The position numbers were made by a program. From a virus (taxonomy: Duplodnaviria > Heunggongvirae > Uroviricota > Caudoviricetes), in the IMG/VR virus record IMGVR_UViG_2695420863_000007: DNA of 18,526 bases; one strand, written 5' to 3'. Below are positions 1 to 3,000 of the stretch, in pieces; within the stretch, counting starts at the first letter, position 1; each line of letters begins with the position of its first letter.

Positions 1-3000
1 CGGCAACATCAGCACGCAGAGTTTCATTTTCAGCTCTCGCATCGGCTAATTCCCTCGAGTATCTGGCATCAAGTGCAGCGACATCACGCTGGCGTATCTG
101 CATATCAGTAATTGTCGCGTTCGCCAGCTCCAGCTCACTGGCTTTTTTATCGCGCTGCTCTTTGTAGATGATGGCGTGATCACGGTAATGATTCAGCCCC
201 AGACTAAGCGCACCACAGGCCACCAGCAGGACAATGATAACCACGCACAGAACACGGTTCATATCACCACCAACGGATTGCCCAGACCAGAACAGCAATG
301 GCCACAATACGAATGGCAAAAGCTGCCGCTCTTGTTAAATCCAGACTGGCTGGCGTCTCCACTTCAATGCCTTTCATAATGGACAACCTCAGAAAGAATC
401 TTTTATACTTCCTCACAGGGAAAGTACCTCCCTACCCATAATTTCTCCCTTGCCTTACTCAAGGTCAGAAAACACAAAACCCCGCTTGCTGCCAACAAAC
501 GGGGTTTTTACTTTTATTCACTTAGGTTTTACCAGTTTTCAGGATTTCGTGTTATCCACCCGCGTTGGCCAACGTCATTTTTCAGGAAAATATTCTGCTA
601 TCTGTCGATGTCCCAGCACGCCAGCGCGCTCTCCTGGTCACGCCGTGAGACCTGACCGTAGCAATTATTTGAACGGATACGGCAGTCTCTGCCACCGTCC
701 TTAATCCACCAGCGAATCGCCTCACAGGCACCTTTTCGATCGCCTGCATTAATTCGTTTATAAAACGTCGACGGGAAGCACTTACCGGGGCCAATGTTGT
801 ACGGACAGAATGACGCGATCCCCGCTTTCTGGGGTTCGGTCAGCGGCACCCGGATGTTTTTCTCCACCCATGCCAGAGCCTTGTCACGTTCGATGGCATT
901 AACCCGGTCGCATTTTTCCTTTGACAGCTTCATGCCAGGAATAACAGGCTTACCATCCACCAGAATGGCACCACGGCAGATGGTCCAGATCCCCGCACCA
1001 TCACGGTATGCCGTGGTGTGGTTACCTTCCTTTTCATCCAGAAACTGGTCGAGGATTTCAGGCGCAGAAGCACCTGCACCAATCAGCGCCAGAACGGCAG
1101 CCGACAGGCCGTATTTTATTTTTTCGTTCATGGGGATTTATCGATTTCTAATCCCTTGATATGTTAGGTATATAATCCAACACTCATGGTCGCTCTCATA
1201 AACATATCCCTTGAGACGCAGCAGATTACAACAAATGAAGCCATATAAATGAACAGTAAAGAAAGTTTGCGCAGAAGATTTTTACAACTAATGACAGAAA
1301 ACGTTAAATCAGAGTTACTTCTTCTGATGGCAGATAATAACGAAGCAACAAGCAGCATTCTTGCAGACCCTTACGGTAAGATCTCACATAAAACGCTGGA
1401 TATTATTACCACAACATTAACACCGCTGATGCTTCAACGGCTGAAACATAATATCAACGCATGGGTTAATGAAGAATTAAGTCCTCCCTGCTTATGGGAT
1501 TCTCGTTACGCATGTCAGCAAAAAATGCGAATTTTCAACTTACTATCACCAAAGCTCAGGTAGCCATAAAATCCTGCCCTTCATGGCATACAGGATTTCA
1601 ATGGAATCACAATGACCAACTCTTGCACAGCTGTATCCCTGACTCCCCGACAACTCAGATTTTCAGTATCTGCTGCTATCTAAAGAGAAAGCGCACAAAT
1701 GCAAGGGTCTTTCATCACGTCCTGTTATTGATTGCCTGTGACCTTTTCTTACCTCATGGAACGTTTTTTCAGTTAGAAATATTCATTTTACAACCAGTTC
1801 GTATTGTTTATTCATCGACTACTCTCCCCGCGCCACCTTACGCTTATCTTCTTTAATCTTGAAATAAAGGTTAGTCAGATACGTCAGCAGGCCAAACAGC
1901 AGACTCCCCAGCACACCGATTGCCACCCACTGGGACGGAGAGACTTTGTCCAGCAGCTGCAGTAACCAGTATCCCGTCCCCACCGCTGACGTGGTGTATG
2001 ACACACCTGTTGTGATTTTTTCCATCTGATGTATGTCTCCGTCACCGCCGACAGAAAATGAAAGTAAAGAAAAACAAAAAAACCGCCAGTGTCACCCACT
2101 GACGGCCAACTCCGGGAGCCGTGATTATGGCATTCAGGCTCTGCTAAAAATGCCAGATAACATTCCGGCCTCCCCTGATTCAGGTTATAAATGACACAAT
2201 ATCTTGACAACACCCGTCACTGTCTGTCAGAAAATATACCGCCAGGCATAAGTATCATGTGAAATCCAACTATCCTTCTGAGCCAGCACCTCTCCACCGA
2301 AAGTCAGTGCTGGCTGTTTTTTTCCTTAATAAAGCATCTGTAACTGAAACAATCCGCATATTGATAATATATTGACAGGCATCATTGCTGTCTGTGAAAA
2401 ATAAGTCTCTACAAACATATAAGGCCTTTTAGCCAGCGTCTTCTTTCAGGTCAGTCGCTGGCTCTTTTTTTATTATGCTGCCGGTGCATTTATCTCCAGC
2501 ACCAGACTTTCTATCTCAACGCCATACGCTGCATTTTTTGTAACATCCGTCAGCGTCAGCGCATTCAGTCCCAGTGTCAGACTGTCTTTTATAACCTGGA
2601 ATGCCGGGCCAGCCACTCCATTCAGTTTCGGAGTAACCGTGGCACTGCCGGCGGTGAACACCAGCTCCAGCGTCTGCCAGTCGTTACCGTAACCGCCGAA
2701 CTCCCCCAGCTTCGTGTTTCCGGCTTTCCTGTGATGCATCAGATTCACTCTGCCGTCAGTGGTCTGAGTGAAGTACGACATCAGGAACGGATTACCGGTA
2801 CCCGTCATCGCCACACCATCAGGAACGGGAGCATCCGTATACAGATAAATCCCCAGCCCGAACTGATTGTTGGTCAGTGCGCCTGACAGGCGGAACTTAC
2901 AGGTCAGTCTGCCGCCCTGTGTCAGCAGGGTAATTGCGTCATCCACCGGATGCGTCAGGGACCAGGTTTTATTGCTCTGCTTGGTGATCTTAAATACACC

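Follow-up and report, generated by a model that had tools for sequence, protein, structure and literature searches.

The closest described relative of the locus considered here is pasA, which encodes a prophage small RNA (sRNA) of the enteropathogenic Escherichia coli (EPEC) strain E2348/69. PasA is 85 nt long and has been documented by Northern blot, Hfq-dependent stability and RNA sequencing (RNA-seq) (PMC8550237, Pearl Mizrahi et al. 2021). Table S6 of that study places it on the strand opposite to the late genes, where it starts at 743499 and has two ends, the major one at 743415 (85 nt) and the minor one at 743264 (236 nt). The Northern probe falls inside the first of two terminators, and a note to the table names EcOnc51 and EcOnc52 of enterohaemorrhagic E. 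coli (EHEC) as homologues. The latter two are sRNA candidates of EHEC O157:H7 Sakai from Hfq cross-linking and analysis of cDNA (CRAC), and reside in prophages Sp12 and Sp4, respectively (Tree et al. 2014, PMC4104026). In the Pas sRNA literature, PasA and a second sRNA, PasC, are described as flanked by the gene for the sialic acid esterase on one side and those for holin and lysozyme on the other. The present analysis concerns the 447-bp esterase-holin spacer in the virus record IMGVR_UViG_2695420863_000007 (Caudoviricetes), a stretch of 18,526 nucleotides that will be called the window. The locus is very probably the pasA of a lambdoid prophage, comprising two adjacent paralogous sRNA units that run antisense to the late operon.

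Both units lie inside the spacer on the plus strand, and each is built from the same succession of elements, namely TTGACA, ten further nucleotides, CTGTCTGT, an A-rich −10-like element, a hairpin of the form AGCCAGC...GCTGGCT, and a run of seven T. This layout, with its shared element, its GAAAAT-like element and its repeated stem, had been described in the original prediction, which was made from sequence alone, and all of its parts were indeed found, with small corrections of coordinates. The promoter-like region of unit 1 (2204-2235, +) has a −35 TTGACA at 2204-2209 and CTGTCTGT at 2220-2227, the latter supplying a TG at −15/−14; CAGAAAAT follows directly, with a −10-like CAGAAA at 2228-2233 (+), 18 bp from TTGACA, and GAAAAT at 2230-2235. 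Its terminator (terminator 1, 2281-2323, +) has a 9-bp stem formed by AGCCAGCAC (2281-2289) and GTGCTGGCT (2307-2315), which encloses a 17-nt loop and is followed by a G and T7 (2317-2323). After an AT-rich inter-unit spacer (2324-2371, +), which holds the promoter-like hexamers TTGATA (2361-2366) and TATATT (2368-2373) and yielded the promoter-scan match CTGAAA-18-TATATT at 2344-2373, comes the promoter-like region of unit 2 (2372-2402, +), with TTGACA at 2372-2377, CTGTCTGT at 2388-2395 and GAAAAAT at 2396-2402. Terminator 2 (2431-2471, +) has an 8-bp stem of AGCCAGCG (2431-2438) and CGCTGGCT (2456-2463), followed by C and T7 (2465-2471), and a single base separates it from the stop codon of the esterase gene (2473-2475). 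Unit 2 also contains a stretch specific to it, TCTCTACAAACATATAAGGCC.

The likeness of the two units goes well beyond chance. The pattern TTGACA-N9-10-CTGTCTGT-N1-2-RAAAAT occurred twice in the window and in none of 200 shuffled versions. Global alignment of unit 1 with unit 2 gave a score of 54, as against −11.9 ± 8.6 for dinucleotide shuffles, none of which reached it in 1000 trials; when the hairpins were left out, the promoter and 5′ parts still scored 15 (shuffles, −8.8 ± 6.6; 1 in 1000 as high). Judged from these alignments, the units are true paralogues, with the homology that is expected of tandem sRNA genes. Absence of coding capacity had also been predicted, and no plus-strand open reading frame (ORF) of at least 40 amino acids was found inside the units, nor one of at least 20 amino acids inside either predicted RNA. 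A 53-amino-acid plus-strand ORF upstream of the units (2033-2194) had no Pfam match and is absent from the annotation of related records.

Placed in register, both promoter regions read TTGACA, N15, TG, T, and then CAGAAA or GAAAAA. In unit 2 the −10 could be either GAAAAA (2396-2401; 18-bp spacer, TG at 2393-2394) or AAAAAT (2397-2402; 19-bp spacer). We infer that each promoter has a consensus −35 separated by 18 bp from a weak hexamer, which is preceded by the TG of an extended −10, with predicted starts near 2239-2241 in unit 1 and 2406-2410 in unit 2. The TTGACA assignments of the original prediction thus hold for both units, whereas the −10 that it placed at GAAAAT in unit 1 probably needs a shift of two bases; GAAAAT was rejected because, at 20 bp from TTGACA, it is too far away. 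A generic promoter scan missed both promoters because their best −10 candidates score too low, and a terminator scan, limited to loops of 8 nt and thus too narrow for either hairpin, caught hairpin 2 only in part; these scans therefore speak neither for nor against the units.

The comparison with E2348/69 established the identity of unit 1. By blastn, nucleotides 12-85 of PasA (NC_011601, 743499 to 743415) match window positions 2250-2323 at 91.9%, and nucleotides 12-236 of the 236-nt form match 2250-2474 at 95.2%, which places the 5′ end at 2239. With the published ends, this gives a PasA homologue of 85 nt at 2239-2323 (+) and a homologue of the minor read-through form at 2239-2474 (+). The window allele has the position, strand, terminator, seed GCCAGCACCU and 85-nt length of E2348/69 PasA, and a nearly identical promoter, but differs from it in the first ~35 nt. 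The promoter block of unit 1 is also found upstream of both PasA and PasC in E2348/69, and over the 32 nt that run from TTGACA to GAAAAT it departs from that of PasA at a single position, by substitution. Unit 1 is furthermore identical to the EHEC Sakai Sp12 locus that holds EcOnc51, and the same allele occurs in phage H-19B; the same two-unit layout is seen in E2348/69 PP2 and in phage 434. The PasA seed has been published as GCCAGCACCU (PMC8550237, Fig. S5 text), and an identical GCCAGCACCT is found at 2282-2291 (+), in the 5′ arm of terminator 1. Unit 1 accordingly displays what marks the PasA family, i.e., homology, the seed in the 5′ arm of the terminator, synteny and strand, and a 3′ stem-loop with poly-U. 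Homology, seed and the shared two-unit layout together identify unit 1, at the level of sequence, as the PasA homologue, which in Sakai Sp12 is EcOnc51.

It is to be noted that the existence of these RNAs, their sizes, Hfq dependence and interaction partners come from published experiments on near-identical loci. For the allele in the window, expression is documented by the CRAC cluster EcOnc51 alone, which corresponds to window positions 2269-2345, the Hfq-bound 3′ part of PasA; it is for the allele of E2348/69 that the 85-nt Hfq-stabilised RNA was shown. In the terms of a 2026 preprint (Zhu, Shabalina and Storz), the allele in the window is probably PasA-2. The same preprint derives the 5′ end of PasA from cleavage of a longer precursor, which does not fit Table S6 of PMC8550237, where the long and short forms share their 5′ end and differ at the 3′ end.

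Ligation and sequencing of interacting RNAs (RIL-seq) assigned 41 partners to PasA, with 4983 fragments under activating and 116 under non-activating conditions (PMC8550237, Table S5); it ranks 12th by number of partners and is among the best-connected sRNAs of the accessory genome in EPEC. According to the mechanism that we propose, PasA would act mainly in trans, its seed GCCAGCACCU, carried by the 5′ arm of the terminator, pairing with CUGNUGCUGG-like sites of numerous core and accessory mRNAs, among them the esterase mRNA at its 3′ end. A site of the RIL-seq target motif has been reported in both esterase genes of E2348/69 (PMC8550237, supplementary table), and at 2495-2505 on the minus strand of the window, within the 3′ end of this mRNA, stands CUGGUGCUGGA, an exact complement of the seed at this published target site. 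Read on the plus strand, the same interval is a third copy of the seed string, CCAGCACC. An RNAduplex comparison of PasA with the esterase 3′ end, in which 50 of 300 shuffled targets did as well, is uninformative at such lengths.

It could be asked whether the hairpins are mere insulators or terminators, or the promoter-like sequences chance products of an AT-rich spacer, with no functional RNA at all. In line with this, neither unit belongs to an Rfam family; there was no match at the gathering threshold anywhere in the window that covered the units, and in the region 1950-2650 a scan at E ≤ 10 found no family, the matches being noise (snoRNAs and one plant-virus element). The fold of the whole unit 1 RNA is likewise unremarkable (z = −0.5). 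These points are met by published transcripts from near-identical loci, detected by Northern blot, Hfq dependence, RIL-seq and CRAC, so that plus-strand transcripts from the interval have been experimentally detected in close homologues. Nor does any plus-strand gene exist upstream that the hairpins could serve to terminate. Moreover, the seed is conserved, and a covariation analysis across related prophages, covering 16 distinct variants, found the hairpins to be 95.8% paired, with both sides changed at three stem positions in a compensatory manner (C:G to U:A, A:U to G:C). Terminator 2 folds with z = −3.4, and the curated record of phage 434 labels both plus-strand hairpins simply as terminators. 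A locus devoid of functional RNA is therefore scarcely credible, and the original idea of a pair of prophage-encoded small RNAs, each roughly 70-90 nt long, is supported, unit 1 being PasA and unit 2 the RNA known from Hfq-CRAC as EcOnc52.

The assignment of unit 2 followed from the coordinates of EcOnc52 (Sakai 1181998-1182075, minus strand), which runs from TCTCTACAAACATATAAGG to GCTGGCTCTTTTTTTATTATGCTGCCG and is identical in 78 of 78 positions to window 2406-2483; EcOnc52 is therefore to be equated with unit 2 rather than with another copy of PasA. The predicted unit 2 RNA (2406-2471, +; ~64-66 nt) at the same time constitutes the 3′ part of the 236-nt minor form of PasA. EcOnc51 and EcOnc52 were catalogued as two copies, each in a different prophage, and have been cited as ‘PasA homologues’, whereas here they are, as far as sequence comparison goes, the two units of one tandem paralogous locus, and this is new. 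In Sakai Sp4, unit 1 is missing, and an IS629 insertion sequence (IS) lies 26 nt upstream of TTGACA in unit 2. In EPEC, the unit 2 region appears as a separate RIL-seq entity, pasA.E2348C_0688.IGR, whose fragments (743267-743294) correspond to terminator 2; it has 5 partners, escD among them, with 119 fragments under activating and 54 under non-activating conditions, 100% of them as RNA2 (PMC8550237, Table S5). An Hfq-bound RNA ending at terminator 2 exists, as shown in close homologues, and the 3′ end of unit 2 behaves like an sRNA 3′ end in RIL-seq. RNAduplex was again uninformative at such lengths, as 155 of 300 shuffled targets did as well as the escD RIL-seq fragment with unit 2. EcOnc15 of Sakai Sp15 was also considered and set aside as unrelated, since it sits between Q and stx1A.

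The distribution and conservation of the two units were then examined. A search of 5426 complete E. coli genomes gave 2836 places in 692 genomes for a unit 1 probe and 2294 places in 677 genomes for a unit 2 probe, about 100 of the latter being on plasmids; from these numbers, roughly three quarters of the loci are tandem. PasA is thus carried by about 13% of these complete genomes, mainly those of EHEC and EPEC, and as a rule with several copies per genome. In an exact-pattern scan of one genome per species outside E. coli, the tandem pair was found only in E. albertii, besides about 20 chance singletons, and a distant-mode blastn search of 50,697 phage records returned nothing beyond the same 29 records. 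About 200 loci were retrieved from IMG/VR by promoter- or terminator-based patterns. Architectures, counted over the reference loci together with those from the promoter-pattern scan, comprised about 78 tandem (spacing 167-169), about 24 PasC-type single, about 10 single with a complete unit 1, and 11 with unit 2 only, so that the tandem is the commonest form.

Conservation was assessed on terminator-anchored samples, which are hence unbiased with regard to the promoter. In 29 distinct variants the promoter block of unit 1 is nearly invariant, as is the 3′ part of the RNA. Between them, the RNA is hypervariable over its first ~40 nt, the variation setting in sharply where transcription is predicted to start. 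Over its whole length unit 2 is nearly invariant, and its promoter block is fully so in 20 distinct variants; the block is also kept in IS-truncated copies that lack unit 1. This near-invariance of unit 2, together with its autonomy-like behaviour, is new to the description of the locus, as far as our comparisons of sequence go, and implies a second RNA to be reckoned with in any experiment that deletes or overexpresses pasA.

The loci with unit 2 only arose from IS insertions or rearrangements, whose breaks fall within 3 nt of 2353-2356 (L005/L064, L056, L068) or in the T-tract of unit 1 (L007, L111), and leave the promoter and RNA of unit 2 intact; such recurrent breakpoints could reflect an insertion hotspot or selection for unit 2. 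In L007 (3001-3240; plasmid NZ_CP027391.1) and on about 100 other E. coli plasmids, which are large, unit 2 stands alone with an 87-nt remnant of the esterase gene, beside a uilS lactonase gene and IS elements. The L007 copy has no change in the 31 nt of the promoter block and about 8 changes in the 66 nt of the RNA body.

Whether unit 2 is a gene in its own right is the question on which these data bear most. It is possible, though on the unlikely side, that unit 1 is the sole gene and that unit 2 is a decayed duplicate with an inactive promoter, retained as a back-up terminator that shields the esterase gene from antisense read-through; the Hfq-bound 3′ end of unit 2 would then be the tail of the 236-nt read-through RNA. 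The published annotation, with one start (743499) and two ends, agrees with such a view, as do the weak −10-like hexamer of unit 2, the abutment of terminator 2 on the esterase stop codon, and RIL-seq fragments far fewer than those of PasA in the activating condition (119 vs 4983). An inactive promoter would not, however, be expected to keep its block in register with the active unit 1 promoter and invariant across the 20 variants, or to survive intact in several independent IS-truncated copies and in the roughly 100 plasmid copies that lack unit 1. The EcOnc52 cluster, moreover, begins at 2406, a start predicted from the unit 2 promoter. Finally, the ratio of unit 2 to PasA fragments shifts from 2.4% in the activating to 47% in the non-activating condition, a difference of about 20-fold that a constant fraction of read-through would not predict. 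Overall, the invariant in-register block, the unit 2-only copies and the condition-dependent ratio, set against an annotation as read-through, lead us to consider firing of unit 2 from its own promoter slightly better supported than its absence.

The single-unit forms were informative with respect to the history of the family. PasC of E2348/69 PP5 is a single-unit locus and is not present as such in the window; it has a promoter and first ~38 nt of the unit 1 type, but the stem (AGCCAGCG/CGCTGGCT) and downstream context of unit 2. One tandem locus, L093, has a unit 2 with the exact PasC terminator (36 of 36 identical), and the PasC locus aligns with it through a single clean deletion of 150 nt that ends in the shared motif CC-TTTT-AGCCAGC. 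From this alignment, PasC is a chimera of a unit 1 5′ part and a unit 2-type terminator, an origin by deletion that is a further new element. The 2026 preprint holds that PasA and PasC share an ancestor, which the two-unit view explains while also tidying the nomenclature of the family. The preprint also denies that tandem duplication produced the pasA copies; unit 2 would have escaped the BLAST criteria that it applied.

Taken together, the following course of events is proposed. Transcription of PasA, of ~85 nt, would start from a promoter of the sigma-70 type, in which a perfect −35 is combined with the TG of an extended −10 and a weak −10 hexamer. The RNA ends at the Rho-independent terminator 1, where U-tail and hairpin bind Hfq, and is stabilised by it, as shown in EPEC. 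Some polymerases pass terminator 1 and reach hairpin 2, giving the 236-nt form that has been shown in E2348/69. Unit 2 would provide a second Hfq-bound RNA ending at terminator 2, partly by read-through and putatively also as a ~65-nt RNA from its own promoter. Change within the family would proceed by recombination between units, PasC representing the 150-nt deletion and the other single-unit form having kept unit 1 and lost unit 2. In its strongest version, i.e., tandem sRNA genes of which unit 2 is a separately promoted ~65-nt Hfq-binder with targets of its own (e.g., escD), in a family that diversifies by inter-unit recombination, by replacement of the unit 1 5′ part and by the deletion that made the PasC chimera, we regard the proposal as evenly balanced between true and false. 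Such a tandem pair contradicts the statement of the preprint that pasA neither arose by tandem duplication nor is found in one.

Several observations weigh against the overall account of the locus. The published start of PasA was read from RNA-seq coverage, and the starts of both units in the window are predicted ones; both −10 candidates (CAGAAA and GAAAAA) are weak and lack the T at −7. CRAC clusters mark Hfq-bound fragments and not transcript ends, as is evident from EcOnc51, whose start lies 30 nt within PasA. Since Sakai has several copies of unit 2, EcOnc52 reads need not stem from the Sp4 copy devoid of unit 1, and the RIL-seq fragment counts of unit 2 are small. The authors of the EPEC study treated unit 2 as a minor read-through form of PasA, and the PasA targets are candidates drawn from its RIL-seq partners; any regulatory outcome on these targets, and any physiological role, is accordingly only presumed here. 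The 233-nt read-through RNA folds with long-range pairing between the paralogous hairpins, which is not significant (z = −1.4).

The location of the units raised the question of an action chiefly in cis, in which the RNAs would pair or collide with the complementary Q-dependent late transcript, and thereby damp leaky holin and endolysin expression in lysogens or time lysis. Both units do lie antisense to the sole path by which transcription from pR′ and the esterase gene reaches S and R, terminators of the late strand also occur in the spacer, and PasA forms RIL-seq chimeras with the esterase 3′ region of both prophages. These chimeras, however, map to a seed-type site in the coding 3′ end rather than to the fully complementary intergenic region, and most of the 41 PasA partners are unlinked core and virulence mRNAs. 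Copies of PasC and unit 2 also persist beside IS elements with no holin gene downstream. Q-modified polymerase is, besides, resistant to terminators, and late transcripts vastly outnumber sRNAs after induction. We therefore consider a mainly cis role improbable, and retain pairing in trans as the proposed mode of PasA.

Two kinds of known system invite comparison. The anti-sRNAs AgvB and AsxR (RF02702, RF02703), which occupy the moron region 3′ of pR′ in lambdoid prophages, are also short, Hfq-binding prophage RNAs; they resemble PasA in their location in the late-region moron zone, in a conserved 3′ part with a variable 5′ end, and in being often convergent with another sRNA. Unlike them, the units have no Rfam sequence or structure match within the scans given above, the PasA seed is in the terminator arm and not at the 5′ end, and sponge activity is not part of the PasA evidence. 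The tandem sRNAs OmrA/OmrB of E. coli and PrrF1/PrrF2 of Pseudomonas, on the other hand, consist of adjacent homologous units with a shared promoter architecture and terminator and a read-through product that spans both, PrrH being the read-through product of PrrF1/2. The present RNAs differ from these in that their bodies share little beyond the terminator, and in that independent transcription of unit 2 is putative. The locus is thus already known in substance, and is no new kind of system.

With regard to the surroundings, the late region of the window is on the minus strand, with Q at 6482 to 5859, the esterase gene at 4323 to 2473, the holin gene at 2025 to 1819 and the lysozyme gene at 1131 to 598. 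The esterase (2473-4323) is a SASA-family sialate O-acetylesterase of the nanS-p type (Pfam SASA, DUF1737, DUF6645), and the holin (1819-2025) is a class II (P21-type) S protein (Phage_holin_2_1, E = 1.9e-32). The esterase-holin spacer is 98.7% identical to that of phage H-19B and about 95% identical to those of phage 434, YYZ-2008 and many phages carrying the Shiga toxin type Stx1a. Upstream of the holin gene, a terminator scan found an intrinsic terminator-like hairpin of the late strand (2081-2107, −), which is an annotated terminator in phage 434 and is given for context, and a second such hairpin lies at 2152-2169 (−), also just 5′ of the holin start; in the absence of Q, the two would stop esterase transcription before the lysis genes.

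Just upstream of the esterase gene, and in late-gene orientation, a 172-nt homologue of PasD2 (99.4% identical) was found at 4580 to 4410 (−), which had no Rfam match at the gathering threshold. The order is thus pasD2, sialate esterase, pasA, holin and lysozyme; given the late orientation of PasD2, it and PasA converge across the esterase gene, as in E2348/69 PP2. Between Q and PasD2, in the moron position where Stx phages carry stx, lies a 172-amino-acid ORF (5104-5622, −) without a Pfam match; the window has no stx genes.

Elsewhere in the window, Rfam matches at gathering level on the minus strand comprised a C4 antisense RNA (10029-10113), an a1/b1 target (10175-10227) and isrK (10140-10214); together, over 10029-10227, they make up a C4 module of the P1/P7 type for immunity and antirepressor control within this lambdoid prophage. 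A match to sRNA-Xcc1 was recorded at 9441-9524 (−), with 75.7 bits against a gathering score of 53. Lastly, a full-length match to the lambda cIII thermoregulator element (18051-18109, +; 88.5 bits) shows that the early-left region (cIII/N) occupies the window's far end.

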